DNA of 64,000 bases from Rhodothermales bacterium (GCA_965216255.1 OZ244148.1:4907962-4971961); one strand, 5' to 3'; positions 39,469-64,000 are shown, counted from the first letter of the stretch. Numbers and translations are program-made. The notes: generated by a model from the letters alone, not told the origin.

Positions 39469-39632
39469 GTATAGAGGATGCGGATCCGGTGACGGAGGGA
39501 GAGGATGCGGTGTTTGCAGTGAAGCTGAGCGTGCCATAGGGGCAATTTGGCTGTGGCCGTGAGGCAGGGGCACGATAGAGGACAATGACGATGCGCCGAC
39601 GGTGAGTATAGAGGATGCGGATCCGGTGACGG
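39445..39632 (+). other. Scrambled mosaic of repeat fragments that breaks the giant ORF
   Basis: At 39444/39445 the repeat jumps from ...GAGGTGACG straight to ACAATGACGATGCGCC, out of frame. The 39530-39575 stretch is a patchwork of 10-30-nt pieces of the unit (GTGCCATAGGGGCAATTTGGCTGTGGCCGTGAGGCAGGGGCACG). At 39632/39633 GTGACGG joins CGACATCGG. Confidence 0.8.
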
Positions 39633-48600: not shown

Positions 48601-51600
48601 TGCAGAGGCGGTGATAGAGGGAGGAAATGCGACATTCGCTGTGACGCTGAGCGAGGCAAGCGGCCAGGCAGTGGTGTTGACGTATGCGACACGTGATGTT
48701 ACGGCGATCTCACCGGGGGACTATGCGGCGGAGCCGAACGGCAGCATGACGATAGAGGCAGGCAAGACGGATACGACGATAGTGGTGCAGACGATAGATG
48801 ACACAGAAAAGGAGGAGGAGGAGACGTTTGAGGTGGTATTGACTTCAGCGGCGGGAGCAGGGATAGAGGCGGGAGGATCGGTGGGCAGGGGCACGATTCG
48901 GGACAACGATACGGCACGGACGGTGCGTATAGCCGATGCGGAGGTGGTGACGGAAGGCGAGGTAGCGACGTTTGTGCTGACACTCAGTGGGGCAAGCAAC
49001 CAGGCTGTGGTGGTGGGCTATGCCACGGAAGATGTTACGGCGACCTCACCGGGGGACTATGTGGCGGAGCCGAACGGCAGCGTGACGATAGCGGTGGCAG
49101 AGACGGAGGTCGTGATAGAGGTGCAGACGACGGATGACACAGAAAGGGAGGATAGAGAGACCTTTGTGGTTCGGTTGGGCGACGTGGCGGGTGCGACCAT
49201 AGAGCAAGGGAGCGGGGTGGCAGAAGGGACCATAGAAGATAATGAGGATATCTCTGTACGCATAGCAGACGTTCGGGTGGCGGAAGACGCGGGAGTGGCG
49301 GTTTTTGTGGTGACATTGAGCGCGGAGAGTGATGCGGTGGTGACGGTAGCATACGCTACGGCGGATGGGTCGGCGGAGGCGGGGCTGGACTATAGTTCGC
49401 GCAGTGGCACGTTGACGTTTGCGGTGGGTGATACGGAAAAGGAGATCAGGGTATCGATCACGGACGACGCATTGGATGAGGAGGCCGAGACGTTTGAGGT
49501 ACGGCTGAGTGCCCCTGTGGGGGCGGTGTTGTCGAACGTGGTAGCGACGGGGACGATTTTGGACAACGAGCCCTCGCTGCGTATTGACGATGTAACCGTG
49601 GCAGAGGCAGCAGGTGAGGCTGTTTTCAAGGTTACGCTTAGTCCGCAGAGCAATTGGGAGGTGACGCTAGCGTACGCCACGGCGGATGGGTCGGCGGAGG
49701 CGGGGCTGGACTATTCGTTGGATAGCGGCACGTTGACGTTTGCGGTGGGTGATACCGAGAAAGAGATCAGGATACCGATCACGGACGACGCACTGGATGA
49801 GGAGGACGAGACGTTTACGGTGACGCTGACGAATCCTTCGTCTGCCGGAGTGACGCGGCCGGTGGCTACAGGGACGATAGAGGATGATGATGCTGCGTCA
49901 TCGTTGATAGTAGAGGACTTGGAGGTGTTTGAGCACGAAGAGACCGCGTCAATCAGCGTATTGTTGACCTCAGAGAGCCAGGAGACGGTAGTGGTTCGTT
50001 ATGTGACCGAGGATGTTACCGCGACGGCAGCAGCAGAGGACTATCTCTCAAGCGAAGGCACGCTGGAGTTTGCGCCGGGGCAGAGTCTTGGTCAAATCGA
50101 GGTTGGGATATTGGAGGACGGGCATGTGGAAGGGGACGAGACCTTTCGAGTATTTCTCAGCGATGCGGTGCATGCGGGCATTGCAGATGGCGAGGCCGTG
50201 GTGACGATACGGGACAACGATGTGTGGTCGGAGCTTCGGATAGGCGATGCGATTGCAGCGGAAGGTGGGGGTACGGCGACGTTTGCGGTTTCGCTGACTC
50301 CGGCGGCTGTGGAGATGGTGACGGTAGGGTATGCCACGGCGGACGGGTCGGCGGAGGCGGGGCTGGACTATACGTCGGGCAGTGGGACGTTGACGTTTTC
50401 GGCGGCAGAGACGAGGAAGACGTTCACGGTTGATGTGTTGGAAGACACGGAGGTTGAGCAGAACGAGACGTTTACGGTGGAATTGAGTGATGTCATGGGT
50501 GCGCGGATAGCGCTAGGGATAGGAGTGGGAACGATACTGGACAACGACGGAATCTCGACACTGACCGTAGCGGATATGGAGGTTGGAGAGGAGATAGGTA
50601 CGGCCCGGGTACGGGTGGTGCTGAGTCCTGCTCGAGGCGAGGAAGTCACGGTAGCGTATGCTACTTCGGACGGCACGGCGCGGCAGGGGGAGGATTACAC
50701 GGCCGTGACGAATACGCTCAGCATACCGATAGGGGGGGAGGAAGGCTGGATACCGATAGAGATAACGAACGACGGTATTGTGGAGCCTGACGAGGCGTTT
50801 ACGGTGACGCTGTCGGCTCCGACGCATGCGATTTTGGGGAACGAGACGGCGACGGTGGCCATTGTGGACGATGATCTGCCCGTGTTGAGTATCAACAATC
50901 CCTTTGCACCGGAGCACCAGGGGATCATGGTGTTTATGCTGAGCCTGGATCAGGTCCGTGATGAGGCCGTGACGGTGAATTACGCTACCATGGACGTGTC
51001 TGCGACGGCGGGCGCCGACTATGTATCGCATGCCGGGATAGCCCGGATAGCGGCGGGAGCGTTACGGCAGGAGATCGAGGTAGGGATCATAGAGGACGCA
51101 GCGCTGGAGTCTTCGGAGACGTTCGAGATGGTCTTGAGTGATGCCAGGGGGGCGGAGATAGGAGTAGCCGTGGGAAGGGGGACGATACTGGATAACGATG
51201 AATACAACATGGCGATACGCGATGTGGAGGTAGAGGAGGACGAGGGATCGGCCGTATTCACGGTAGAGCTGGATTATCGCAATACGGACCAGGAGGTATC
51301 GGTATCGTACAGGACGCTAGCGGGCACGGCGGAGGAGGATGAGGACTTTCACGGAGAGTCTGGGCGGTTGGTATTTGCGCCCGGGGCATTGCGGCGGCAG
51401 ATACAGGTCTCGATAGTTGATGATGCGGAGCACGAGGCCGACGAGGCGTTTTCAGTGGTACTCAGCCAGGTGGAGAACGCTACGCTGGTGGATGCGGAGG
51501 CTACGGCGACGATACGGGACAATGATTTACGGAAGGTGGATATCACGGGAGTGACGGTGGTAGAGGGGGAAGGGGTAGCCAGATTTGCTGTGAATCTTGA

Positions 51601-54445
51601 TGACGCCACTCTTAAGCCTGTCATCTTAGTCTACCAGACCCTCGAAGGTACGGCGGAGTCTGGCGCGGACTATCATTCGACGCGAGGGGCTCTGACATTT
51701 GAAAGGGGAGAGATAGCCAAGGTCATCGAGGTGCCGGTGGTAGATGATGGCATAGACGAGCCGGACGAGACGTTTACGGTGCTGATAGGCGGAGCGCTGA
51801 ATGCGGAATTGATGCGGTCTGTAGCCACGGCAACGATACTCGATGACGATGAGGCGCCGGTGGTGGAAGTGGCGGGGGATGTAACCGTGGGCGAAGGGGA
51901 TGCAGCGGCCGTCTTCACGGTGACGCTGCGCGGCAGGAGTGCATGGCCTGTGGAGGTGGAATACGAGACGGAGGACATCACGGCCAGGGAGGGTCTGGAC
52001 TACACATCTGCATCCGGGAGGCTGAGCATACCACCGGGTTTTGGAACGGGTACGCTTACCGTGGTTGTGCTTGAGGATGAGGTGGATGAGCCCGATGAGG
52101 CGTTTTTGCTGCGGCTTACCGGTGCAGAGCGGGCGACGTTGGGATCCGCGCAGGCACGGGGCATCATCATGGACAATGATGCTACCCCCGCACTGCGGAT
52201 AGATGATGTGACGGTAGTGGAAAGCGAGGCAAGTGCGGTGTTTACGGTAGGAATGAGTCCTGCCAGTTCGGAGCGTGTGCTGGTAAACTATGCGACTTCA
52301 GACGAGACGGCGACGGCGGGGCTGGATTATGTGGATACGAATGGCACGTTGGCGTTGGAGCCGGGAGAGGTGGAAGCGCAGATCACGGTGCCGGTGGAGT
52401 TGGACGGTGTGGACGAGCTGGATGCAGAGACCTTTCTGGTTACGCTAAGTGCGGCGGTTGCTGCCGAAATAGCCGACGGAGAAGGTCGGGGCACCATATT
52501 GGACGACGACGAGCCGGTATCGCTGAGTATCTTTGATGTAACGGTGGCGGAGGATGCAGGTATGGCGAACTTTGTGGTGGGGATGAGTCAGGTGAGCGGA
52601 AAATTCGTGAGCGTCAATTTTGCGACTTCGGATGAGACGGCGCAGCAGGGTAGCGACTATACGGCCTCGAATGGCATCATAGTGTTTGAGCCGGGAAGTC
52701 AGACGGGCAAGATAGCCGTCTCTATTGTGGACGATGTTCTGGACGAGAGTGCGGAGGAGACCTTCAAGGCGACGCTAAGCAATGCAAGCAATGCCGTCAT
52801 AGCGAGGGGAGAGGCCACGGGGACGATTTTGGACAACGAGGGGCAGCCATTGCTGCGGGTAGACGACGTAACGGTGAGTGAAGAGGATGGTGTTGCTTCG
52901 TTTCGGGTGTGGCTATCGGAGCCGAGCAGCAGGATGGTGATGGTGGGCTACCGCACCGTGGATGGTAGCGCCGAGGCCGGAGCAGACTATGAGGGTCAGC
53001 AAGGGACGGTGACGTTTGAGCCTGGACAGATCGAGGAGACCATAGCGGTAAAGTTGATAAGGGATGGCCGGGACTGGGCCACAGAGACATTTACCCTGGC
53101 GCTGGAATCAGCCACCCATGCACAGATAGAGGACCCTGCAGCGACGGCCACGATTGTGGAGGAAGGATCGGTGCTGGGCGACGTAATGGCACAATGGCTG
53201 GCCCGCTTCAGCAGGACGTCAGCCGGTCATGTGGCCAGTGCACTGGAAGATCGCGTGCAGTGGCTCACGTCTGCACCGCACTGTACGCCACGGATGGGCA
53301 GTGGCATCAAGCATTTCCGATACATGAATCCGTCATGGGATCCGTCGGTCGGCGAATTGTTTTCGGGCTGTTCGATGGCCCTGAAATCGGCGAGAGGGCA
53401 GGGTGAGATGAGTCTCTGGGGGCGCGGCGCGTATACGCGCTTTAATGGCAGAGACGGGCAGCTAAGTATCAAGGGCAATGTTTCGACGGCGGCGTTAGGC
53501 GTGGATTACCTGTCGCCGCGAGGCTGGTTGACCGGAGTGCTGTTGGCCCATAGCCGGGGCGACGGCACGTTTGCGGCGGTGGATCTGGAAGGTGAAGCAC
53601 GCTCTAGCCTCACGGGGATCTATCCGTACGTGCGATACGGCAATACAAGGCGTTCCGTCTGGGGCATGGCCGGGTACGGGACGGGCACGGCGCTGCTGGA
53701 ATCGGAAGACAGCCTGGAGTCTGCGCTGGATGCTGTCATGGGGTTAGCCGGCATGCGTGTTGGGCTTCTGAAAATGGGACAAGCTCATGTCTCGTATGAG
53801 GCGGACGCACTGGTGGTTCGCACGACGGCGGACAATCTGGACGTACTCGTGCACCGTGTGCGTGCGGGCCTGGAGGGCGTCTTGCGTCTGAGCCAGGGGT
53901 GGAGCCCGTATGTGGAGGCTTCCGTGCGGCAGGATGGAGGAGATGCCGAGACCGGTATCGGCGTGGAAGTAGCCGGAGGCGTACGCTATGCTGGCAATGC
54001 GCTGAAAGCGGAAGTAACCTCCCGGGGGCTGCTGGCCCATGCCTCGACAGGATTCGCGGAATGGGGCGTAGCCGGGGCTCTGCACTATGGCAACGCCGCG
54101 GGCCTGGGTCCTGCGGCATCCATACGGCCCTCGTGGGGCACAGCGCACTCGGGTGGCATGCAAGCGTTGTGGCGATCGGCATCCATAGAAGACGCGCTGC
54201 ATGGAATATCGGGTGCAAGAAGATTGGAGCTGGCGCTCGGATATGGCATGCCCTCCATAGTGGGCACGGGAGTCGCAAGGCCGGTGGCAGCAATGACCTT
54301 GCAGGAGCAAGGCAGAGAATACAGGCTGGGCTACGAAGTGGCTATGCGTCGCTACCTGAACCTGTCCATGGAGGCCGTGGCGCGCACTGTAGCCGTGAAC
54401 AAACGCAACTACGGCGTCAGTGTCCGCGGAACCATGCGCTGGTAG
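39602..54445 (+). CDS. Giant Calx-beta tandem-repeat protein, C-terminal 4,947 codons with autotransporter-like beta-barrel (continuation of 29197-39468 in another frame; no credible own start)
   Basis: The frame opens inside a repeat unit, so GTG 39602 is only the first possible start codon. About 40 further Calx-beta units follow, then a non-repeat C-terminal domain of about 430 aa ending ...VSVRGTMRW. Confidence 0.8.
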   Translation: MSIEDADPVTATSDATATAGQDYDAVVGGSLVIPAGKTDTTIVVGTIDDALSEEAETFVLTLEEPEGADLAVGAAVGTGTIEDNDDAPTVSIGDAPLVTEGVDAVFAVKLSEASGREVTVPYATSDATATAGQDYDAVVGGSLVIPAGKTDTTIVVGTIDDALSEETETFVLTLEEPEGADLAVGAAVGTGTIEDNDDAPTVSIGDAPSVTEGVDAVFAVKLSEASGQEVTVPYATSDATATAGQDYDAVVGGSLVIPAGKTDTTIVVGTIDDALSEETETFTLTLQDPVGADLAVGAAVGTGTIEDNDDAPTVSIEDAPSVTEGVDAVFAVKLSEASGREVTVPYATSDATATAEQDYDAVVGGSLVIPAGKTDTTIVVGTIDDALSEEAETFVLTLEEPEGADLAVGAAVGTGTIEDNDEAPVVSIEDAPLVTEGVDAVFAVKLSEASGQVVTVPYATSDATATAGQDYDAVVGGSLVIPAGKTDTTIVVGTIDDALSEEAETFVLTLEEPEGADLAVGAAEGTGTILDNDDAPTVSIEDAPSVTEGVDAVFAVKLSVASGQEVTVPYATSDATATAGQDYDAVVGGSLVIPAGKTDTTIVVGTTDDVLSEETETFVLTLQDPEGADLAVGGAEGTGTILDNDDAPTVSIEDAPSVMEGVDAVFAVKLSEASGQKVTVPYATSDASATAGQDYDAVVGGSLVIPAGKTDTTIVVGTIDDALSEETETFTLTLQDPVGADLAVGAAVGTGTIEDNDDAPVVSIEDAPSVTEGVDAVFAVKLSEASGREVTVPYATSDATATAGQDYDAVVGGSLVIPAGKTDTTIVVGTIDDALSEETETFTLTLQDPVGADLAVGAAVGTGTIEDNDDAPVVSIEDAPSVTEGVDAVFAVKLSEASGREVTVPYATSDATATAGQDYDAVVGGSLVIPAGKTDTTIVVGTIDDALSEEAETFVLTLEEPEGADLAVGAAVGTILDNDGAPTVSIEDAPLVTEGVDAVFAVKLSEASGREVTVPYATSDATATAEQDYDAVVGGSLVIPAGKTDTTIVVGTIDDALSEEAETFVLTLEEPEGADLAVGAAVGTGTIEDNDEAPVVSIEDAPLVTEGVDAVFAVKLSEASGQVVTVPYATSDATATAGQDYDAAVGGSLVIPAGKTDTTIVVGTIDDVLSEETETFVLTLQDPVGANLAVGAAEGTGTILDNDGTPTVSIEDAPSVTEGVDAVFAVKLSVASGQEVTVPYETSDATATAGQDYEAAVGGSLVIPAGKTDTTIVVGTSDDALSEETETFVLTLQDPVGADLAVGAVVGTGTILDNDDAPILSIEDADPVTEGVDAVFAVKLSEASGQEVTVSYTTVDVTATAGQDYDAVVGGSLVIPAGKTDTTIVVGTTDDDLDEEDTETFTLVLSAPLNATLDEDEGTGTILDNDDAPTVSIEDAPSVTEGVDAVFAVKLNVASALEVTVPYETSDATATAGQDYDAVVGGSLVIPAGKTDTTIVVGTTDDVLSEETETFVLTLQDPVGANLAVGAAEGTGTILDNDGTPTVSIEDAPSVTEGVDAVFAVKLSVASGQEVTVPYETSDATATAGQDYEAAVGGSLVIPAGKTDTTIVVGTSDDALSEETETFVLTLQDPVGADLAVGAVVGTGTILDNDDAPILSIEDADPVTEGVDAVFAVKLSEASGQEVTVSYTTVDVTATAGQDYDAVVGGSLVIPAGKTDTTIVVGTTDDDLDEEDTETFTLVLSAPLNATLDEDEGTGTILDNDDAPTVSIEDAPSVTEGVDAVFAVKLNVASALEVTVPYETSDATATAGQDYEAAVGGSLVIPAGKTDTTIVVGTTDDVLSEETETFVLTLQDPVGANLAVGAAEGTGTILDNDGTPTVSIEDAPSVTEGVDAVFAVKLSVASGQEVTVPYETSDATATAGQDYDAAVGGSLVIPAGKTDTTIVVGTIDDVLPEETETFTLTLQDPVGANLAVGAVVGTGTILDNDDAPTVSIEDAPSVTEGVDAVFAVKLSEASGQEVTVSYTTVDVTATAGQDYDAVVGGSLVIPAGKTDTTIVVGTTDDDLDEEDTETFTLVLSAPLNATLDEDEGTGTILDNDDAPTVSIEDAPSVTEGVDAVFAVKLNVASALEVTVPYETSDATATAGQDYDAVVGGSLVIPAGKTDTTIVVGTIDDVLSEETETFVLTLQDPVGANLAVSAAVGTGTILDNDDAPTVSIEDAPSVTEGVEAVFAVKLSVASALEVTVPYATSDVTATAGQDYEAAVGGSLVIPVGKTDTTIVVGTIDDAVSEETETFVLTLQDPVGADLAVGAAEGTGTIEDNDEVPTVSIEDAPSVTEGVEAVFAVRLSEASGREVTVPYATVDATATAGQDYEAAVGGSLVIPAGKTDTTIVVGTTDDVLSEETETFVLTLQDPVGADLAVGAAEGTGTILDNDGAPTVSIEDAPSVMEGVDAVFVVRLSVTSGQEVTVPYATSDATATAGQDYEAAVGGSLVIPAGKTDTTIVVGTTDDAVSEDTETFILTLQDPVGADLAVGAAEGTGTIEDNDDAPTVSIEDAPAVTEGGDAVFAVKLSVASGQKVTVPYATSDATATGGQDYEAVVGGSLVIPAGKTDTTIVVGTIDDAVSEDTETFILTLQDPVGADLAVGGAEGTGTIEDNDDAPTVSIEDADPVTEGVAAEFTVTLSEVSGRDVVVPYVTSDGTANSPGDYVAEPSGSVKIKAGETEVTIEVHTIDDVEQEEEETFAVTLSDPVGAALAVGGEAATGTILDNDGAPTVSIEDAPPVTEGGKAEFVVRLSVASGQEVTVPYATSDATATAGADYEAETAGSLTIEAGRTDTTIVLQTLDDDLNEESETFTVTLGEPVGAELAVGGEDGTGTILDNDDAPTVSIEDAPPVTEGGEAVFAVTLSGVSGRQVVVAYATGDGTATGGQDYDAAVGGSLVIPAGKADTTIAVQTIDDAEKEETETFEVLLGDVQGATIEEGRGVAEGTIEDNEGVSVRIADAEAVIEGGNATFAVTLSEASGQAVVLTYATRDVTAISPGDYAAEPNGSMTIEAGKTDTTIVVQTIDDTEKEEEETFEVVLTSAAGAGIEAGGSVGRGTIRDNDTARTVRIADAEVVTEGEVATFVLTLSGASNQAVVVGYATEDVTATSPGDYVAEPNGSVTIAVAETEVVIEVQTTDDTEREDRETFVVRLGDVAGATIEQGSGVAEGTIEDNEDISVRIADVRVAEDAGVAVFVVTLSAESDAVVTVAYATADGSAEAGLDYSSRSGTLTFAVGDTEKEIRVSITDDALDEEAETFEVRLSAPVGAVLSNVVATGTILDNEPSLRIDDVTVAEAAGEAVFKVTLSPQSNWEVTLAYATADGSAEAGLDYSLDSGTLTFAVGDTEKEIRIPITDDALDEEDETFTVTLTNPSSAGVTRPVATGTIEDDDAASSLIVEDLEVFEHEETASISVLLTSESQETVVVRYVTEDVTATAAAEDYLSSEGTLEFAPGQSLGQIEVGILEDGHVEGDETFRVFLSDAVHAGIADGEAVVTIRDNDVWSELRIGDAIAAEGGGTATFAVSLTPAAVEMVTVGYATADGSAEAGLDYTSGSGTLTFSAAETRKTFTVDVLEDTEVEQNETFTVELSDVMGARIALGIGVGTILDNDGISTLTVADMEVGEEIGTARVRVVLSPARGEEVTVAYATSDGTARQGEDYTAVTNTLSIPIGGEEGWIPIEITNDGIVEPDEAFTVTLSAPTHAILGNETATVAIVDDDLPVLSINNPFAPEHQGIMVFMLSLDQVRDEAVTVNYATMDVSATAGADYVSHAGIARIAAGALRQEIEVGIIEDAALESSETFEMVLSDARGAEIGVAVGRGTILDNDEYNMAIRDVEVEEDEGSAVFTVELDYRNTDQEVSVSYRTLAGTAEEDEDFHGESGRLVFAPGALRRQIQVSIVDDAEHEADEAFSVVLSQVENATLVDAEATATIRDNDLRKVDITGVTVVEGEGVARFAVNLDDATLKPVILVYQTLEGTAESGADYHSTRGALTFERGEIAKVIEVPVVDDGIDEPDETFTVLIGGALNAELMRSVATATILDDDEAPVVEVAGDVTVGEGDAAAVFTVTLRGRSAWPVEVEYETEDITAREGLDYTSASGRLSIPPGFGTGTLTVVVLEDEVDEPDEAFLLRLTGAERATLGSAQARGIIMDNDATPALRIDDVTVVESEASAVFTVGMSPASSERVLVNYATSDETATAGLDYVDTNGTLALEPGEVEAQITVPVELDGVDELDAETFLVTLSAAVAAEIADGEGRGTILDDDEPVSLSIFDVTVAEDAGMANFVVGMSQVSGKFVSVNFATSDETAQQGSDYTASNGIIVFEPGSQTGKIAVSIVDDVLDESAEETFKATLSNASNAVIARGEATGTILDNEGQPLLRVDDVTVSEEDGVASFRVWLSEPSSRMVMVGYRTVDGSAEAGADYEGQQGTVTFEPGQIEETIAVKLIRDGRDWATETFTLALESATHAQIEDPAATATIVEEGSVLGDVMAQWLARFSRTSAGHVASALEDRVQWLTSAPHCTPRMGSGIKHFRYMNPSWDPSVGELFSGCSMALKSARGQGEMSLWGRGAYTRFNGRDGQLSIKGNVSTAALGVDYLSPRGWLTGVLLAHSRGDGTFAAVDLEGEARSSLTGIYPYVRYGNTRRSVWGMAGYGTGTALLESEDSLESALDAVMGLAGMRVGLLKMGQAHVSYEADALVVRTTADNLDVLVHRVRAGLEGVLRLSQGWSPYVEASVRQDGGDAETGIGVEVAGGVRYAGNALKAEVTSRGLLAHASTGFAEWGVAGALHYGNAAGLGPAASIRPSWGTAHSGGMQALWRSASIEDALHGISGARRLELALGYGMPSIVGTGVARPVAAMTLQEQGREYRLGYEVAMRRYLNLSMEAVARTVAVNKRNYGVSVRGTMRW
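43000..46015 (+). repeat. Higher-order repeat: three near-identical 1005-nt blocks (3 Calx-beta units each)
   Basis: GGACAATGATGGCACGCCGACGG recurs at 43201, 44206 and 45211. Antisense ORF sets recur at +1005 (42999/44004/45009; 43693/44698/45703; 43815/44820/45825). Confidence 0.9.
53160..54445 (+). other. C-terminal autotransporter-like (type Va) translocator domain of the giant protein
   Basis: The repeats stop. A helix-like linker (VLGDVMAQWLARFSRTSAGHVASALEDRVQWL) is followed by alternating-hydrophobic strands rich in G/Y/R (SLWGRGAYTRFNGRDG, GVDYLSPRGWLTGVLLAHSRGDG, LTGIYPYVRYG, YRLGYEVAMRRYLNLSMEA). The terminal residues are ...RGTMRW, an aromatic C-terminus. Confidence 0.6.
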
Positions 54446-54632: not shown

Positions 54633-56083
54633 CTATGCCGCCTTGTGTTTGTCAGCTTGTCGTGCCTTCTGCCAATGATGAGGCAAGAGGTCAGCTACGC
54701 GCCTGGCCGGATGCGTCGGGATGCGCTCGAACACGTCCGTGAGCCACTCCTGGGGATTAACACCGTGTAGCTTGCACGTGCCAAGTAGCGAATAGACCAC
54801 GGCTGCCCGCTGGGCCGCATCATGTGATCCCGCGAACAGGTAATTCTTGCGGCCGATAACCAACGGCCGCAGGGCATTTTCAATGAGGTTATTGTCCAGC
54901 TCCACGCGGCCCTCATCCAGGTATCGGGTCAGCCTTTTCCAAAGGCCGAGCGTATAGTTGGTCGCCTGGCCCCAAGGGCTCTTGGGCAATCCCCCGTTCG
55001 CCTCCAGCCAGGGCTTCAGCGCTTCCAGTACAGGCCGGGCCTCTTCCTGACGTATCGCAGCCTGCGCTCTATGGCGTAGAGTCGCCTGATCTTTGTCAAC
55101 ACGTGCTCGGCCTTCTCCGGTTCGTAGCTACGACAGTCGTAGAACTTGCGACGGGCATGCGCCATGCATCCGTAGACCGTCATAGACGGATGCGCTTCGA
55201 AGACGTTGTAGGCCACATACCCGTCCGTCTGCAACGCTCCCGCATACCCACCCAAGAACGCCACCGGACCTGCACGGGCACGGCTCTTGCGATACTCCAT
55301 CACAAACAGCTTCTGCTCCGGAGTGTGGTACGCCCAGTAAAAACCCCGATGGGTCTTGCCCTTCTTCTTTCGATCCTGGACCTGGATACGCGTCTCATCC
55401 GCCTGCAGATACCCGCTTAAGAGCGCCTCCTGCTTGAGTGCATCATACAGCGGCCCAAGGTGCCATGCCGACTGCGCTATCCAGCCTCCCAGCGTGGACT
55501 TGGCAATTTCAATGCCTTCCCGCCGGAAACGCTGCTGCTGCCGGTACAGGGGCAAGTGGTCACAGTACTTGTTAACCACCACATCGGCCAACAATCCCGG
55601 TCCGGCCATGCCCTTGTCCACCAGCCGCGGAGGCAACTCGGCGATGATGACGCCGCTGTCCTCATCGGTCGGGTCCACGTACTTGGGGCGATGAATCTCG
55701 ACCTCCTTTATCATGCTGGGCACGATCTCCAGGTACTGCGTCTTCTCCATGCCGATGCAAATGAGACCTGTCGTGTCCTCTTCAGGCTGGATTACGATCG
55801 TCTCGCGGGGCAGGTGATCCGGCAGATCCTCGAAGTCCGGACGCCGCTTGGCCTTGCGCCGCTTCCGCTTCGGCTGATCCGTCTCGGGCTCGGGCGGCAG
55901 GGGCGCCTCGACCCCCATGTCGTCAAACAAGAGGCCCTGCTGCGCCTCCGGCCCCAGTACATACCTTTCGCTCCTGGAGCCAAAGAGCAGGCGGAGGGCT
56001 TCAGCCAGCTGTTTGTCCTTGCTCTCCAATTTCGCCTGCAGCCGGCTTATCTCCTCGGACTGGCTGGCGTTCTGCTTAAGCAC
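54633..56083 (-). pseudogene. tnpC: IS66 transposase TnpC with -1 frame break
   Basis: ORF 55016-56083 contains LPLYRQQQRF, ADETRIQV and GCMAHARRKF, and stops at ...LYAIERRLRYVRKRPGLYWKR*. The -1 frame continues QEEARPVLEALKPWLEANGGLPKSPWGQATNYTLGLW...IDNNLIENALRPLVIGRKNYLFAGS. The total of 1451 nt is not a multiple of 3. The N-terminal start is also unclear. Confidence 0.8.
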
Positions 56084-56203
56084 CGCGGCAAGCTGCGCAC
56101 GGAGGACGTGAGGTTCCGCGGAAGAGGGGGAGGAATGTGCTCCGGGCTGTATGATTGTTCAACAACGCCTGCACATGCATTGTTCCACGTTTCCACATAC
56201 TAT

Positions 56204-56551
56204 TTATCCCGATTTCCGGCTCTTAACCGCATACCGGCGCCGGTATTTTACGGACTTCAGCGACACTCCCTCCAGTAACATCACCATCTGCGTCCACGTC
56301 GGCATATCCTCTTTCGGCAGCTCAAACGTACCCGCTTCAAGCCTTTTGTAAAACAAGGCGAAGCCGTTTCGGTCCCACGAAAGCGCCTTTAGATGGCTCC
56401 GCCTCCTGTTGACGAACACAAAGACGTCCCCCGACATGGGATCCCGCTTCATGTCGCTTTTCACCAAGGCGCACAGGCCGTCAAAGCTCTTGCGCATGTC
56501 GGCTGGCGGCCGGTAAAAGAAATACCGGTGCGAAGGCCCCAGTCCGATCAT
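56204..56551 (-). CDS. tnpB: IS66 Orf2 accessory protein (IS66 TnpB)
   Basis: Intact at 115 aa, with FFYRPPADMRKSFDGLCALV and VFVFVNRRRSHLKALSWDRNGFALFYKRLEAGTF. Its ATG overlaps the tnpA stop (ATGA). Confidence 0.85.
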   Translation of the reverse strand: MIGLGPSHRYFFYRPPADMRKSFDGLCALVKSDMKRDPMSGDVFVFVNRRRSHLKALSWDRNGFALFYKRLEAGTFELPKEDMPTWTQMVMLLEGVSLKSVKYRRRYAVKSRKSG

Positions 56552-56840
56552 GACTGCACCAGCTGCGCCAGGTACGAGGCAGATACCGGCGCCAAGAGGC
56601 GCACGCGTATCCCGCCCGGGTACATGATCTCCACTTGCGCCTCTTCACCTGCCACGGGTCTGCCAATCTCCACAAAGGCGCCGCTGCCGCAGCCTCCAGG
56701 CGATACTTCCGACGCCAGTAAAACAGCTGCCCATACGAGATGCCGCGCTCGGCACAGAACGCTGCAGCGGTCTGGCTGCTTTCTTCATACTGTTCCATGA
56801 GCGGAAACATTTCTTCCGCCGTACGTCTGGGCTGTCTCAT
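56548..56840 (-). pseudogene. tnpA: IS66 Orf1 (TnpA) with -1 frame break
   Basis: The N-terminus MRQPRRTAEEMFPLMEQYEESSQTAAAFCAERGISYGQLFYWRRKYR runs into non-family sequence. The family-like C-terminus FVEIGRPVAGEEAQVEIMYPGGIRVRLLAPVSASYLAQLVQS* lies in the -1 frame. The total of 293 nt is not a multiple of 3. Confidence 0.75.

Positions 56841-56922: not shown

Positions 56923-56926
<4 letters not shown>
56911..56926. repeat. IS66 terminal inverted repeat (right in window)
   Basis: TTCACCGCACGCTTAC, the reverse complement of GTAAGCGTGCGGTGAA. Confidence 0.8.
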
Positions 56927-58413
<1,487 letters not shown>

Positions 58414-58421
58414 GTCGCTGT

Positions 58422-59558
58422 TCAGGGATCCCGCGGCTCAGGTTCGTCGTCGCGAATGACGTCCACCAAGCGCGGATTTAGCAACCTCCACCGTTGCCCC
58501 AAGCGTTCGAGGTCGCCCGCCAGCACGACCGGCATCCGGTCGCCGTGGGCCTGAACTACCCTTTCGTAGTCCGCTCTCTCCAGAACCGCCGTGACCGACT
58601 GTCGTTGCGCGTCTATGTCGGTCACCAGACCGATGGTTCCGTCATCGTCCGCTTCTCCGCGTCTTAGAAGCCGGACGAAGCCGTAGAGCCGCACGTCCGA
58701 TCTGGGAGCGCGGTCGCGAAACGAACGCGCCGCTTCGCGCAGAAGGGCCGCGTCCGCGCGGCCGAACCGAACGAAGGTAGCCGGTGTTGTTACTGGCCTT
58801 GTCCGAGCCCACGAGACTCCAATGTCCAGGGCCGGAAACGGTACGAGGAGCAGGACCAGAGCCTCACATAGATTGGCGCTCACGCCGTTGGCCACTGCTT
58901 CTCCAAAGGCGCCCCCCTCGCCGGCCGCCGTGCGTTCTGCCGCCTCACGGACCGCGGTGAGGGCCTCGACTAGGCGTCTCGTCATCCGGCGTTCGATCGG
59001 GGCGTTCCTATCATTCGGATCCGGGAACAACGTCGGCATCAGCGGCGGCATGACCGGCGTTAGCAATGTCACCACGAAGCTGCCCTGGTCGGTCTGTCCC
59101 AGGCGCACCTGATTCAATACGTCCGCCGCCTCGCGGTTCGCGCCGGCCCGGTAGACCGGCTGCGGCTGGCGAAGCGAACACGCCACCGATAGCAGCATAT
59201 CGCGTGCGCCGACGATGAGGTCCACGCCCGCGTTCAACTTCACGCTGCCGTCGTCGCTCTCCGCGGCTCGGATGCGGACCGCGTCGCGGTCCGCGGTCAC
59301 TAGGGAACGATAGACGGCCAGCTCGTCCTGATCAGCGACCCTGGCGAACGTGTTGATCAGCGTCGCCACGACGCTCGCGTAGTCGCCGAGGCGCTCTGTA
59401 CGCGGGACGATGATTTCCGGCCGGGCCTCACCGACGTAAACGTCCGAATGTACCCGGTACGGTTCTTGCCGGCTCCACCCGGCGGCTCGGGCATACGCCG
59501 ACAGCGCCGCTGGTGAGACGGCCAGCAGCGCGCCCCGGTCATAGATGTTGACCTTCAT
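58422..59558 (-). CDS. Hypothetical 379-aa protein, no recognisable family (partner of the DUF4365-like gene)
   Basis: ATG 59558 overlaps the upstream stop by 1 nt (TGATG). The frame is continuous with host-like high-GC codon usage. It stops 8 nt before the hsdR ATG. No Walker A, DEAD or HNH-type motif was seen. The ORF-track start 59741 was trimmed. Confidence 0.6.
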
Positions 59559-60058
59559 CAGATCTCTCCCATCCGGGATCTCTCCATGAGTGCCAGTAAC
59601 GCCTTGACGTCGAACACGTTCTGTTCGGGGATGTGAACCGTGACGGTCTGCTGTCCGGTGACTTCGTCGTGTCCTTGCTGCAGGCTCAGCCAGTAGGCTC
59701 GACGCCGCAGGACGAGATCCTCCGGGGTCACGGCCACCCATCGCGATTCGTCGGTCGGCAACTCCAGGACGACGAGCAGCCGCGGCGTCTGGGTGAGGAC
59801 GCGCAAGTCGTTGTAGTTCTTGATGGACAAGCGAAACGGCAACAAGCCACCTTGTGGTTCGGCGAAACCGGTCGTGGCCTTCAGTTGCAGGTCAAGGGCC
59901 GGGCGCCCCGCCCCGCCCGCCTGCATTCGCAAATCGACGCTATCCCGGTCTGGCTCCGGCACCGAAGTCGAGTAACCGGCACGTGCCGCCAACGCCTTGA
60001 CATACACGCGAGACAACGCCTCCTTTTGGTCGGCTCCGGTCAGCAGAGTACCGGTCAT
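59558..60058 (-). CDS. DUF4365-like (PD-(D/E)xK restriction-endonuclease-fold) protein
   Basis: 166 aa. Pattern ...EALSRVYVKALAARAGYS...DRDSVDLRMQ...ALDLQLKATT...LLVVLELP...AYWLSL resembles DUF4365 (D..D...Q-x-K core). Its ATG overlaps the hsdS stop (ATGA at 60055-60058). Confidence 0.6.
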   Translation of the reverse strand: MTGTLLTGADQKEALSRVYVKALAARAGYSTSVPEPDRDSVDLRMQAGGAGRPALDLQLKATTGFAEPQGGLLPFRLSIKNYNDLRVLTQTPRLLVVLELPTDESRWVAVTPEDLVLRRRAYWLSLQQGHDEVTGQQTVTVHIPEQNVFDVKALLALMERSRMGEI

Positions 60059-61668
60059 GTCCTTGCCCCAACGAGCTTTTCCGCCTCTGCCACGCGGATC
60101 TCTCCCGAAATGAGCTTGGAGAGTAGGGTGTCACGGAGGGAGGTGAGGGTCGCAGCTTCCCTCATGTTCGCGACAAGTCGATTGTACGAAGGGCGGCTGA
60201 GACGCTCGTACATCCCTAGGATTCCTTCCGAGGGCACGAGTACAGGTACCGGCCGGAACGCCTTCTTACTGATCTCCGCGAACGTAGATCCACCTGCGAT
60301 GGCCCTGATGTAGCCGAGGTTTTCGTAGCACCAGAACAGCACGTACAGATTAGGTAGGCGTTGCTCGCACTTCATCGCGATGAACCCTTGGTTGACGGCA
60401 GTCGGCACTTCAGCGATGGCCAGACAGCCTATAGGAGCACGTGACGACAACAGTACTGTGCCGACGGGAAGCGTCCCAGAGCTGATCCTCTGCAGTCCAG
60501 CGTCCGTGATCTTCCGAGTCGTTTCGAGCAACACCGGAGACCAGAGCTTCGCGAGGTCTTTGGGTGTCGCCCAATAGCGCTGACCCCGATGCCAGTAGGA
60601 GCGTTCTTTCGTACTGGGAGTCGACCCGCCGACGGCATTGATCTCTTTGCCGATCTCCGATACCGTCCAATCCTGCGGAATCTCTCCCACCTCGGAATCC
60701 ACGAGGCGGCCGGGGAACAGGTCGGTGATGTCTTGCGGCAAGCCCGTGTCCCGACATTCCATCTTCGCACGGACCGGATCGAAATCGACGAACCAGGACT
60801 TGAACAGCGCTCGCGACATCGCCTCCAGCGTTTCATTCATCCGCCGGTTCAGCTTGATCTTGTCGTCCAACGTGCCGAGGATATAGGCGATGGCGCGTTG
60901 TTCGGGCGGGGCGGGGACTGCTACGGCTATTGAAGAAAGAATAGTTTGATTCAGCAAGGGCTGGCCACAGCCTGCCATCCATTGATTTAGCCCCAATGTT
61001 TGGAGCAGATAAAACAAGAATTCTGCATCGTTCTCGTCAATAGCGCGTGCCCGAATGGCGTTGTCTGTCACCCAGCATGAACTATCGCTGTAGTGAAGTG
61101 AACCGCAATAAGTCCCTACTCGCCCAATGATTATTGTATTCCGGTCGACGTTCGTCTCTTCCGGCAATCCAATAACTCCGTTGGAGCCGTAGACGCGGAA
61201 GGGAAATCCATCAGATCGCACAGGACTCGCCTTGCCGTTAGAAAACGATAGCAACCTTCCAAGTGTGGTGTCGGTCCACTTACCCTCCACCCCCGAGCTC
61301 GTCAAGACCGGCAATGATCGCCGCACTAAACCAGTCGACTCCAGAATCTCGGACGGAACCTGCACGGTCACTGCGTCCTGGCGGATAATGGTGCGGAACC
61401 TGTCGTCGATCCTCGACCAATCGACGAGGTCCACTTTGAATGGCAGATCAGACTCGTCAAGGGCTTCGGACAAGGCCGAGGCTGCGTGCAGTGTCAGCGG
61501 CTCCTTGCCCATGATGGCGAGATCGAGATCCGAGTAGTCCTTTGCAGTCCACGTCGCGCGCGATCCGAAGACGAGCACCTCGCGATCTGGCACGTGTCGT
61601 CGGAGAGCGCTACGGACGATAGCCCAATGATCGGGTCGAAGGTCGACGTTGGGGACGGGCATCCTCAT
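60055..61668 (-). CDS. hsdS: Minimal nucleotidyltransferase (MNT antitoxin-like) domain fused in frame to type I R-M specificity subunit HsdS
   Basis: The N-terminal 105 aa or so contain VLVFGSRATWTAKDYSDLDLAIMG and FKVDLVDWSRID (the GS...DxD nucleotidyltransferase fold). The same frame then runs without a stop into a two-TRD HsdS, with the central conserved region EQRAIAYILGTLDDKIKLNRRMNETLEAMSRALFKSWFVDFDPV and the C-terminal LTSLRDTLLSKLISGEIRV. Confidence 0.8.
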   Translation of the reverse strand: MRMPVPNVDLRPDHWAIVRSALRRHVPDREVLVFGSRATWTAKDYSDLDLAIMGKEPLTLHAASALSEALDESDLPFKVDLVDWSRIDDRFRTIIRQDAVTVQVPSEILESTGLVRRSLPVLTSSGVEGKWTDTTLGRLLSFSNGKASPVRSDGFPFRVYGSNGVIGLPEETNVDRNTIIIGRVGTYCGSLHYSDSSCWVTDNAIRARAIDENDAEFLFYLLQTLGLNQWMAGCGQPLLNQTILSSIAVAVPAPPEQRAIAYILGTLDDKIKLNRRMNETLEAMSRALFKSWFVDFDPVRAKMECRDTGLPQDITDLFPGRLVDSEVGEIPQDWTVSEIGKEINAVGGSTPSTKERSYWHRGQRYWATPKDLAKLWSPVLLETTRKITDAGLQRISSGTLPVGTVLLSSRAPIGCLAIAEVPTAVNQGFIAMKCEQRLPNLYVLFWCYENLGYIRAIAGGSTFAEISKKAFRPVPVLVPSEGILGMYERLSRPSYNRLVANMREAATLTSLRDTLLSKLISGEIRVAEAEKLVGART

Positions 61669-62078
61669 GCCAGACGGTCCCGCAATCGATCCCGCAGATA
61701 GGTCATCTCGTCGAGGAACTCTGGAATGTAGGCGACCACGTCGGCCGCGATGGCCTCGCTATACGTGTGACTTGTCATGCCGCGCATCCTTCGATAGCCG
61801 CGCCACTCAGGCCACGCTCCAAGTAGTAACCCCTGCTCGTTCGCCGTGCGGATTTGGTTTTGGAATGTCATCTCATCGAACAGAGCCGGATTGGGTGCCG
61901 TATACTCCAGGTAGCGTCTCATAGTCTTGTAGCCGAGTTCGTACGTGAACTCGAAGCGTTGAATCAGGCCGTCACGAATCTGCAGATCGTTAGTGTCACT
62001 GTGATATCGCTTTAGTCCTTCTTCCAAGCGTTGGATCGCTCGTTCGAGGGGCTTGATGTCGGGCTTATCGTCGTACAT
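61665..62078 (-). CDS. HEPN-domain protein, HI0074 family (nucleotidyltransferase substrate-binding protein; HEPN toxin of HEPN/MNT modules)
   Basis: 137 aa with LIQRFEFTYELGYKTMRRYL and the Rx4-6H motif RRMRGMTSHTY. Its stop overlaps the MNT-hsdS ATG (ATGA). Confidence 0.85.
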   Translation of the reverse strand: MYDDKPDIKPLERAIQRLEEGLKRYHSDTNDLQIRDGLIQRFEFTYELGYKTMRRYLEYTAPNPALFDEMTFQNQIRTANEQGLLLGAWPEWRGYRRMRGMTSHTYSEAIAADVVAYIPEFLDEMTYLRDRLRDRLA

Positions 62079-62092
62079 GGTAATATCGTCTC

Positions 62093-63637
62093 TCAGAATC
62101 CCAGCGCTTCCAGATTCCCGGCAATCGTGGCATCGAGCCGAGTGCCTTCGGTTTGCTGCTCACGAAGCTCGGCCACCAGCCGCTTCATCTTGTCCTCAAA
62201 CGGCTCGCCGTCATTCTCTTGAGGTTCCACCCCGACATAGCGTCCCGGTGTAAGCACGTAGCTGTGCCTGCGCACTACGTCCATCGAGGCACTCTTGCAG
62301 AAGCCGGGAACATCGGCGTAACCATCCTCCACCTCTCCCGTCCGCCAAGCGTGGTAGGTGTCTGCAACCCGGGCAATGTCCTCGTCGGTCAGCTCACGGT
62401 GCGCTCGGTCCACCATCCGGCCGAGCTTCCTTGCGTCAATGAACAGGATCTCGCCCTGTCGCTTGCGTCGGCGCGCCAAGAACCACAGGCAGGCGGGAAT
62501 TTGGGTCGAGTAGAAGAGTTGGCCCGGTAGCGCAACCATGCAGTCCACCAGATCCGTCTCGATCAGGTTTTTCCGGATTTTGCCCTCGCCGGACTGATTC
62601 GACGACATCGACCCGTTGGCGAGCACGAACCCCGCAACGCCCTTCGGTGCAAGGTGATGGACCATGTGCTGCACCCAGGCGAAGTTGGCATTGCGCTTCG
62701 GCGGGATGCCGTAGCGCCAGCGCTTGTCATCGACCAGCCGCTCGCCTCCCCAATCCGAGACGTTGAAGGGGGGATTGGCGAGGATGAAATCGGCCTTCAG
62801 ATCCGGATGGTGGTCGTTGTGGAAGCTATCACCGTGGGCGATCTGCCCCCCGATCCCTCGTATGGCCAGGTTCATCTTCGCGAGCCGCCACGTTGTGTAG
62901 TTCGACTCCTGGCCGTAGATCGAGATGTCGCCGTGCGCCTTGCCGCCGTTGGCGTGGGCACGAATGAACGCGATCGACTGCACGAACATGCCCGAGGATC
63001 CGCAGCAGGGATCATAGACCCGCCCCCGGTAGGGCTCCAGTATATCGACCAGCAGCTTGACGACGCAGCGCGGGGTGTAGAACTCGCCGCCCCTCTTGCC
63101 CTCGGCGCTGGCGAACTGTGAGAGGAAGTACTCGTAGACGCGGCCGAGCACGTCTCGGGAGCGGGCTTCAGCGTCCCCGACGCAGATGTTTCCAACCATG
63201 TCGATCAACTGGCCGAGACGCTGCTTGTCCAGGGCAGGCCGCGCGTAGTCCTTGGGCAGCACCTCCTTCAACCCTGGATTGTCGCGTTCGATCAAGGCCA
63301 TGGCCCGATCGACGATCTGGCCAATGGTCGACTGCCGTGCCTGGGCCTTCAGGTGCAGCCAGCGGGCCTTTGGCGGCACCCAGAATATGTTCTCCGCGAT
63401 GTATTCATCGCGGTCCTCTGCCGCATCTTCTCCCCACTCGGCCAGCACCGCTGTGTGACGCTCCTCGAAGGCGTCAGAGATGTACTTCAGGAAGATGAGG
63501 CCGAGCACGACGTGCTTGTACTCGGCAGCATCCATCGAGCCACGGAGCGCATCGGCCATTGCCCACAGCTCGGCCTCGTAGCCTGTCGTTGCGCCGCTAT
63601 CGGTTTGCCTGCTTGCCATCTTCGTCGCTGTCTTCAT
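62093..63637 (-). CDS. hsdM: Type I R-M DNA methyltransferase subunit (N6-adenine)
   Basis: N-terminal HsdM domain ([36 protein letters not shown]), AdoMet motif [12 protein letters not shown] and catalytic [12 protein letters not shown]. The start is uncertain (63637, 63619 or 63682). Confidence 0.9.
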
Positions 63638-64000
63638 TCCCCCATTGCCCTGGACGAACTCCAAGTGCCGAATCACAGCCAAAATACGACATGTGTCGTG
63701 CCGCCGTACACCTCGTCGAGGCAGGTCGCCATCTCGGATAGAGCCCCCTTGGTTCGCAGCGAATGGCCAAGGGCCAAGCCTGAATTACCGTTTTGGCCTA
63801 GGAAGGTTACACAAATAACGAGATATCTCGGTTTGGAGGCCCTAAGTACAATGTTTTTTTGGCTCGTACTGTCAGTAGTACGGTGGACTCATAGATACAG
63901 TACCACAGTAATGGGTAACCACCTGCTCACTCTGTCCGCATTGATCCGCCAGGATCGTTTGCCCGTGCTGTGCTCCGAAATCGACTTGTAACCTGATTCG

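Follow-up and report, generated by a model that had tools for sequence, protein, structure and literature searches.

An MNT-HsdS fusion beside a HEPN gene in a type I restriction-modification operon of a Rhodothermales bacterium and of bacteria from other phyla

HEPN-MNT pairs and type I restriction-modification (R-M) systems are each well known, and so is the clustering of HEPN genes with R-M operons. Here we describe an operon in which a member of such a pair and an R-M subunit form one polypeptide. Within a stretch of 64,000 nucleotides (nt) from a Rhodothermales bacterium (GCA_965216255.1, OZ244148.1:4907962-4971961; hereafter the window, with positions counted from its first letter), the minus strand encodes the methyltransferase subunit HsdM, then a HEPN protein of the HI0074 family, and then a single open reading frame (ORF) of 537 amino acids (aa) that begins with a minimal nucleotidyltransferase (MNT) domain and continues into a complete specificity subunit, HsdS (Table 1). 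Judged by its homologues, this MNT-HsdS fusion is genuine and evolutionarily maintained, and not the product of a missed stop codon. The explanation that we favour, and consider somewhat probable, is that a type VII-like HEPN/MNT toxin-antitoxin cassette was captured between hsdM and hsdS, and that the antidote, being fused to HsdS, shares its expression, location and fate.

Conservation and genomic context of the MNT-HsdS fusion

An earlier reading of the window alone (the original prediction) had placed the HEPN gene 14 nt after hsdM, with a stop codon overlapping the next start, and had read the first 105 or so residues of the following ORF as a minimal nucleotidyltransferase running without interruption into an HsdS with two target recognition domains (TRDs). 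These points were borne out. The hsdM stop codon occupies 62093-62095, which leaves 14 nt before the HEPN gene; the HEPN stop and the ATG of the fusion overlap as ATGA (tcat on the plus strand, 61665-61668); residues 7-110 of the ORF match HI0073 (PDB 1no5, E 4.6e-24) and residues 18-96 match Polbeta/NTP_transf_2, in line with an MNT domain at residues 6-104; and no stop codon separates this domain from the HsdS part. Residues 130-533 match positions 4-399 of the 405 in a full-length specificity model (PADLOC PDLC03099, Specificity_I; E 1.3e-100), with two Methylase_S stretches and a match to PDB 1yf2 (E 4.4e-44). The features found are those of the HsdS class, namely two TRDs with conserved coiled-coil regions, an hsdM gene upstream and an hsdR gene (a pseudogene) downstream on one strand. 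As in canonical HsdS proteins (Methanocaldococcus jannaschii 1yf2, EcoR124), there are two TRDs, central and C-terminal conserved helices, an adjacent hsdM and TRD1 exchange among relatives; the window protein differs from these in its ~128 extra N-terminal residues, which form a nucleotidyltransferase domain with an intact catalytic motif.

The AlphaFold2 (AF2) model, whose input was an alignment of 21 fusions and 5 unfused proteins (alignment A1), consists of two confident modules, MNT (6-104) and HsdS (129-537), with a predicted local distance difference test score (pLDDT) of ~85-95, joined by a linker of roughly 22 aa with pLDDT <50 (residues 107-128). Taken singly, the MNT module has a pLDDT of ~85-91 and the HsdS module one of ~90, the latter with long helices at 254-294 and 481-521. 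Among the fusions, the linker ranges from ~3 to ~40 aa, has no conserved sequence and is predicted to be disordered. The original prediction had allowed for separate production of HsdS from an internal start near 61290, and the candidate codon, the GTG of SSGVEGKW (codon 127, 61288-61290), aligns exactly with the initiator Met of unfused HsdS homologues that are ~70% identical in TRD1 (V-E-G-K-W against M-x-G-E-W). No Shine-Dalgarno-like sequence precedes this GTG, and the linkers of 24 fused loci (described below) contain no conserved in-frame start with a Shine-Dalgarno-like motif, a test that is weak in phyla using few Shine-Dalgarno sequences. The suggested start is well placed with respect to unfused HsdS proteins, but it lacks both the translation signal and the conservation. 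It is most simply regarded as a relic of the ancestral HsdS start, and nothing in these comparisons supports the separate production of HsdS from it.

To assess how widespread the architecture is, homologues were sought in a collection of 5.8 billion proteins, which yielded 8000 matches. Among the 119 best matches besides the window protein, about 97 combine a nucleotidyltransferase Pfam domain (PF18765 or PF01909) with Methylase_S (PF01420) in proteins of 510-673 aa that are 43-65% identical, the other 22 or so being HsdS proteins of the usual kind (405-434 aa). Identity among the fusions is 51-79% in the MNT domain, which is duplicated in tandem ahead of HsdS in three proteins. In alignment A1, with which the window fusion aligns from end to end, the MNT domain is strongly conserved (FGSRATWTAKDYSDLDLA, ESDLPFKVD), and conservation is also seen in the central region, TRD2 and the C-terminal helix, whereas TRD1 cannot be aligned among members; by this alignment the pattern is that of classical HsdS specificity shuffling, within a frame that always retains the MNT. 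A profile-free HMMER scan with the MNT domain alone against 1.84 billion representatives of 50%-identity clusters returned 4197 matches, of which the best 150 were classified: 78 have at least 480 aa with the MNT at residues 1-105, 17 are of stand-alone-MNT size, and the rest are mostly truncated fusions, tandem MNTs and HEPN-MNT fusions.

A scan for the MNT region in one genome per GTDB species gave 55 loci, which were annotated by BLAST against the window proteins. MNT and HsdS share one ORF in 24 of them, distributed over Rhodothermales, Gemmatimonadota/Longimicrobiales, Acidobacteriota (Bryobacterales, Vicinamibacterales), Alpha-, Beta- and Gammaproteobacteria, and Magnetococcales; loci of the same architecture span at least six phyla. 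The order hsdM-HEPN-MNT::hsdS holds in all fused loci in which upstream genes were found (22 of 22), usually with an apparently full-length hsdR next. The ~85% identity of hsdM between members of four phyla means that horizontal transfer of the locus has been recent. The fusion also occurs on a finished plasmid, pZMOB01 of Zymomonas mobilis ATCC 10988 (NC_017180.1), where an HI0074-family gene is followed by a 527-aa fusion with Polbeta and Methylase_S domains, annotated 'restriction endonuclease subunit S', and then by hsdR, with hsdM lying across the record origin. The recurrence of the single ORF, in ~97 of the top 119 homologues and at 24 loci in genomes, bears out the uninterrupted reading frame in the window. 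The original prediction had also proposed a search of databases for such fusions and for the unfused arrangement in relatives, and both were found.

The unfused arrangement is present on Acetobacter plasmids (e.g. NZ_CP021525.1, NZ_CP042810.1) as hsdM-HEPN-MNT-hsdS-hsdR, with an MNT of 99-105 aa whose stop codon either overlaps the hsdS start as TAATG, in one case, or lies 20 nt before it. Because of the TAATG overlap, the fused state is one mutation away from this unfused operon. In nucleotide sequence, some parts of the fused Zymomonas locus show ~80-83% identity to the Acetobacter operons. Other ordinary HsdS relatives come directly after hsdM or after other cargo genes. Free-standing HEPN and MNT pairs (MNT 94-116 aa), without hsdM, make up about 25 of the 55 loci; some are close relatives (MNT 73-78% identical), and two of them (L010, L015) lie between genes for a TonB-dependent receptor and a P450. 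In a neighbour-joining tree of low resolution, built on ~100 aa, most fusions form one clade nested among free MNTs, with two (L022, L033) placed elsewhere, and we make no firm claim as to a single or multiple origin of the fusion.

Several variants of the architecture were observed. Two proteins (P0080, P0030) are of the form MNT-MNT-HsdS behind a single HEPN. At the locus level, two tandem MNT domains are fused to HsdS after one HEPN gene in L061 (6001-7998) and L062 (6001-8022), the former with two additional free HEPN-MNT pairs upstream of hsdM, and L021 (4918-7611) has two tandem HEPN-MNT cassettes, of which the second alone is fused. A second MNT-HsdS fusion (P0023, 544 aa, 55% identical) is probably encoded on the window protein's own contig of 5,408,441 bp; if so, this genome has two such loci. 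HsdSp of Z. mobilis ZM4 was suspected to be a further fusion and was rejected, since its plasmid pZM32 carries hsdR-hsdM-hsdS with an HsdS of 420 aa and no HEPN or MNT. According to PMC8432527, HsdSp can be deleted with retention of viability and targets GAAGN7TCC; as this HsdS is not fused, its viable deletion has no bearing on the fusion system.

Motifs and predicted activity of the HEPN and MNT modules

Both small modules retain their active-site motifs. In the HEPN protein, where PF08780 is the sole domain detected, the sequence RRMRGMTSHTY conforms to RX4HXY (R99, H104, Y106), a motif kept in the HEPN genes of all fused loci. An alignment of 14 HEPN homologues showed R99, H104, Y106, E43 and E47 to be invariant and Q40 to be at least 90% conserved. 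Structural matches include PDB 1jog (E 1.9e-16) and, at E 3.5e-8, the HEPN toxin of Legionella (8xdj). The MNT sequence GSRATWTAKDYSDLDL fits GSX10DXD (G35, S36, D47, D49), which is kept in every MNT relative examined; the NCBIfam MntA model matches the fusion's MNT weakly (E 3.1e-9, below the model cutoff). On these motif and domain matches, both modules are members of the HI0074/HI0073 HEPN-MNT family.

This placement agrees with the toxin-antitoxin family named in the original prediction, as the characterised relative from Legionella pneumophila is described in PMC11586414 as a type VII toxin-antitoxin system, with HEPN as a toxic RNase whose Y105, in RX4HXY, is AMPylated by the MNT. In the same account, R98, H103 and Y105 form the RX4HXY motif, Q44 and E47 bind Mg2+, and the MNT is monomeric, binds the HEPN tetramer at 1:4 and has no C-terminal alpha4 helix, like HI0073. 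The Haemophilus influenzae pair HI0073/HI0074 (1no5/1jog) and the Legionella pair (8xdj, 8xeh; PMC11586414) belong to the same families as the window modules and have adjacent, overlapping genes. The window residues R99, H104 and Y106 align with Legionella R98, H103 and Y105, with the Q/E/E residues conserved, and the window MNT likewise has GSX10DXD and no long C-terminal alpha4 helix. Unlike in these pairs, the window antitoxin is no small separate gene product but the N-terminal domain of a 537-aa HsdS in a type I operon. We infer HEPN toxicity and MNT-catalysed AMPylation in the window solely from the Legionella homologue as presented in PMC11586414. By the same analogy, and because the alpha4 helix is absent, the C-terminus of HI0073-type MNTs would be free, so that a C-terminal fusion should be tolerable, and one MNT per M2S complex would be a workable stoichiometry given the 1:4 ratio of MNT to HEPN in Legionella (PMC11586414).

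In a second group of related systems, Shewanella oneidensis HepT/MntA (SO_3166/SO_3165) and the HEPN/MNT pair of Aphanizomenon flos-aquae, HEPN is neutralised by (poly)AMPylation of the RX4HXY Tyr, as is proposed here. These systems differ from the window in having a HEPN of the DUF86/HepT type (PF08780 in the window), in having the antitoxin gene first and in having no HsdS fusion, and the C-terminal alpha4 helix by which MntA inserts into HepT is absent from the window MNT.

Two further features are informative about the kind of antidote involved. A Trp in the loop of GSX10DXD (window codon 40, ~61549-61551), within the pattern GSRA[T/K]W[T/S]AK, is present in every fused MNT examined (the comparison covered L001-L055, L063, L065 and L066). 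The corresponding residue is Gly in the unfused Acetobacter MNTs, whose operons otherwise share cassette and position with the window and keep the MNT separate, and mostly Gly in free-standing MNTs outside the fused clade; the Trp also occurs in a few unfused MNTs within that clade (L002, L004, L010, L015, L019) and in the HEPN-MNT fusion L018. Furthermore, two HEPN variants, ~85% and ~30-34% identical to the window protein, pair with ~75%-identical fused MNTs in ~85%-identical operons. Both this pairing and the G-loop Trp agree with an antidote that works enzymatically and not by stoichiometry alone; apparently the antidote was retained while the toxin gene was exchanged. By locus, the two variants divide into L005, L006, L007, L009, L011, L013, L016 and L025 versus L001, L003 and L008, with hsdM ~85% identical; they are ~30-34% identical to each other, and the gene of one overlaps the fusion start (ATGA) while that of the other lies 24 nt upstream.

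Possible consequences of fusing the antidote to HsdS

According to the favoured explanation, a two-gene cassette of the HI0074/HI0073 family would have been inserted between hsdM and hsdS of an hsdM-hsdS-hsdR operon, and the MNT gene, the last in the cassette, would have lost its stop codon and so become joined, through a short disordered linker, to the N-terminus of HsdS. The HEPN protein, by homology, would be an RNase toxin, and the MNT would neutralise it, most probably by AMPylating Tyr106 of RX4HXY in the manner of type VII systems, possibly with the assistance of direct binding. Since antidote and HsdS are one polypeptide, the antidote would be synthesised, localised and turned over together with HsdS and be present in the same stoichiometry. 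Toxin neutralisation would then be tied, genetically and physically, to hsdS and, via M2S assembly, to hsdM. As a minimal consequence, the hsdM-HEPN-hsdS block would be hard to lose or to break; a possible further consequence would be a back-up response upon loss or inhibition of HsdS.

Several observations weigh against this explanation. The unfused Acetobacter loci indicate that the cassette can reside in the operon without being fused, and the fusion could thus be close to neutral. In a Magnetococcales metagenome-assembled genome (L024, 1364-2926) MNT-HsdS stands as an orphan: the 1.36 kb upstream contain neither HEPN nor hsdM, and downstream no hsdR was detected. The swapping of HEPN variants fits an enzymatic antidote and not a tightly co-evolved binding pair, the presumed toxicity of the window HEPN subfamily derives from a relative that matches at E 3.5e-8, and the counts of cluster representatives inflate the fusions, since every TRD combination forms a separate cluster.

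A more far-reaching possibility, which we consider unlikely as matters stand, is that of a guard or abortive-infection device, in which activity of the MNT requires that HsdS be part of an intact M2S or R2M2S complex. Loss of the complex, or phage anti-restriction proteins such as DNA mimics or Stp-like peptides, would switch the antidote off, and newly made HEPN would cut RNA and abort the infection, as PrrC does with EcoprrI. To our knowledge, PrrC is the sole worked example of crosstalk between HEPN and R-M systems. PrrC-EcoprrI (Escherichia coli, type Ic) resembles the window in that a HEPN RNase gene lies within an hsdM-hsdS-hsdR operon and its product is thought to be silenced by R-M subunits; it differs in that PrrC has an N-terminal ABC ATPase, acts as an anticodon nuclease, has no MNT partner and is encoded between hsdS and hsdR, and in that PrrC is silenced by associating non-covalently with EcoprrI, whose HsdS carries no fused domain. 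With this analogue, the guard model is a plausible and attractive extension of the favoured explanation. It gains from the proposal, made in the text of PMC3710099, that R-M subunits keep the HEPN RNases encoded within R-M operons in an inactive state, and from the recognition of PrrC and PARIS as R-M guardians in PMC12707154. The covalent link between antidote and HsdS also recurs across phyla, apparently full-length hsdR genes are present in most loci, and related operons are hot spots for Abi_C, DUF3644, DUF4411, SLFN and PDC-M02. However, the disordered linker of ~3 to ~40 aa offers no fixed geometry for a conformational signal, which argues against a defined allosteric coupling; AMPylation is covalent, so a modified toxin would stay inert and inactivation of the MNT alone would free none; and unfused operons exist.

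In the window itself, moreover, hsdR is dead. A tblastn search with the full-length HsdR of locus L007 finds 75% identity over residues 5-498 only, of ~1049; an in-frame stop codon at 57898-57900 falls at the homologue's Trp172; and the homology ends at 56926 beside an IS66 element, leaving the N-terminal 498 residues, with the 3' half absent from the window. Thus, with a nonsense codon and an IS66 truncation in hsdR, there is no R2M2S restriction complex here and nothing to guard. The hsdM, HEPN and MNT-hsdS genes are intact while hsdR has decayed, and on this gene content the locus would amount at most to an M2S methyltransferase plus a toxin-antitoxin pair. The general claim that MNT-HsdS makes the type I complex the sensor of a toxin-antitoxin switch, that is, a widespread cross-phylum 'R-M guardian' derived from a type VII pair, is one we regard as doubtful. 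If it were true, loss, sequestration or phage inhibition of the HsdS complex would stop the AMPylation of new HEPN and lead to RNA cleavage and abortive infection.

The remaining rivals rank below the guard model, in the order in which they are taken here. The fusion might be a near-neutral read-through of two translationally coupled genes, with HsdS made also or mainly by initiation within the ORF, for example at the GTG of 61288-61290. This we think improbable, even though that GTG is aligned with the initiator Met of unfused homologues ~70% identical in TRD1, the TAATG overlap of an unfused operon means that a point mutation suffices for fusion, and a few fusions retain a Met there (e.g. 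P0011, P0020). The 24 fused linkers share no conserved start codon or Shine-Dalgarno-like motif, nor does such a motif stand before the window GTG, the reading frames have stayed intact through extensive turnover of TRD1 and linker and through transfer across phyla, variants with tandem MNTs before HsdS exist, and the G-loop Trp occurs in all fused members examined and is absent from Acetobacter and more distant free-standing MNTs. Far less probable is that HEPN and MNT constitute a two-subunit nucleotidyltransferase rather than a toxin and its antidote, delivered by HsdS to DNA sites or to the R-M complex and modifying DNA, HsdR or HsdM, or a phage factor. HsdS is a sequence-specific DNA-binding module, and HI0073/HI0074 were originally described as a two-protein nucleotidyltransferase, after which PF08780 is named (the 'substrate-binding subunit' idea). 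Yet RX4HXY and E43/E47 are invariant, and Q40 at least 90% conserved, in the 14 HEPN proteins aligned, matching the catalytic and AMPylated residues of Legionella, and close free-standing pairs sit in unrelated contexts like mobile toxin-antitoxin modules. Hardly credible, finally, is the view that the fusion is an artefact of sequencing or assembly, or a recent lesion of the pseudogene type confined to this genome. The locus is indeed partly decayed, with a nonsense codon and an IS66 truncation in hsdR, but the one-ORF architecture recurs in hundreds of independent database proteins, in the finished plasmid NC_017180.1 from a cultured strain and in 24 genome loci, and the artefact was rejected because the architecture is so widespread.

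The literature covered comprised the HEPN census PMC3710099, the defence-system review PMC3632139, the 2009 toxin-antitoxin census PMC2701414 and the 2025 R-M review PMC12707154. The original prediction had stated that HEPN/MNT pairs are often lodged in R-M loci; in keeping with this, the text of PMC3710099 reports HEPN genes to be frequent in R-M operons, lists R-M clustering for HEPN families and mentions 'RM_TRD' in a figure legend. A description of an MNT-HsdS fusion was not found in the literature searched, including the text of PMC3710099 as well as PMC3632139, PMC2701414 and PMC12707154, and an earlier depiction in the figures or supplements of PMC3710099 is possible. Retained in at least six phyla, a covalent antitoxin-HsdS fusion would connect a toxin-antitoxin module to an R-M complex more directly, in physical terms, than any link so far. 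The fused (pZMOB01), unfused (Acetobacter) and free-standing forms of the cassette provide natural controls by which the coupling hypothesis is directly testable. There is also a consequence for annotation, in that the database label 'restriction endonuclease subunit S' alone hides a toxin-antitoxin module.

Feature coordinates and neighbouring elements

Table 1. Operon genes, fusion domains and adjacent elements in the window.
Feature	Coordinates	Strand	Evidence
hsdM, type I methyltransferase subunit	62093-63682	minus	HsdM_N + N6_Mtase E 4e-108; PADLOC MTase_I E 1e-218
HEPN gene, HI0074 family, predicted RNase toxin, 137 aa	61665-62078	minus	PF08780 NTase_sub_bind E 4.7e-32; TIGR01987 HI0074 E 7.8e-22
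MNT-HsdS fusion, single 537-aa ORF	60055-61668	minus	domain and homologue matches
MNT domain, aa 6-104 of the fusion ORF	61357-61653	minus	Polbeta E 2.4e-9; NTP_transf_2 E 3.6e-7; HI0073 (1no5) E 4.6e-24
Flexible linker, aa 105-128	61285-61356	minus	AF2 pLDDT <50 (107-128); length and sequence unconserved among fusions
Complete HsdS module, aa 129-537: TRD1, central conserved region, TRD2, C-terminal conserved helix	60058-61284	minus	PADLOC Specificity_I
DUF4365 / PDC-M02A cargo gene, downstream of hsdS	59558-60058	minus	PF14280 E 7.6e-20; PADLOC PDC-M02A E 1.5e-50
PDC-M02B gene, ~378 aa	58422-59558	minus	PADLOC PDC-M02B E 1.2e-117, residues 62-432 against model 1-377 of 380
hsdR pseudogene	56926-58413	minus	tblastn with L007 HsdR; HSDR_N + SWI2_SNF2 Pfam matches on two ORF pieces
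IS66-family element	54633-56840	minus	TnpB_IS66 E 3e-33; DDE_Tnp_IS66 E 5.8e-58, 1.5e-19; IS66 C-terminal element E 2.7e-18

The longest hsdM ORF opens with TTG, and the real start is probably a downstream Met near 63637. Among solved structures, 3khk is nearest to this HsdM, with further matches to the M subunits of EcoR124 (E 1e-40) and EcoKI (E 8e-19). Downstream of the fusion, PDC-M02A and PDC-M02B, a candidate defence pair in PADLOC, form a second, translationally coupled cargo module in the operon, between hsdS and hsdR. The M02A start overlaps the hsdS stop as ATGA at 60055-60058, and M02B, which has no Pfam match, likely starts at Met62 (59558) of a 439-aa ORF, where it overlaps the M02A stop by 1 nt. 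In related type I loci (L056-L061), other cargo of a defence type is concentrated at the hsdM-hsdS and hsdS-hsdR junctions, with examples that include DUF3644 (HEPN), Abi_C, DUF3800, DUF4411 with an M78 peptidase, SLFN/AlbA_2 and DUF1016.

The IS66 element has an intact tnpB (56204-56551) and a tnpC split into two parts (55016-56083 and 54633-54989); tnpC being split, this copy is probably defective. Farther away, two giant ORFs occupy the plus strand at 29197-39468 (3423 aa) and 39602-54445 (4947 aa), with near-identical Calx-beta repeats and, in the second, a terminal autotransporter-like beta-domain. With 133 nt between them, they could represent a single gene that has been interrupted, or a repeat region sensitive to assembly. 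A further mobile element is indicated by a DDE_Tnp_1 transposase ORF of 528 aa on the minus strand (25143-26729).

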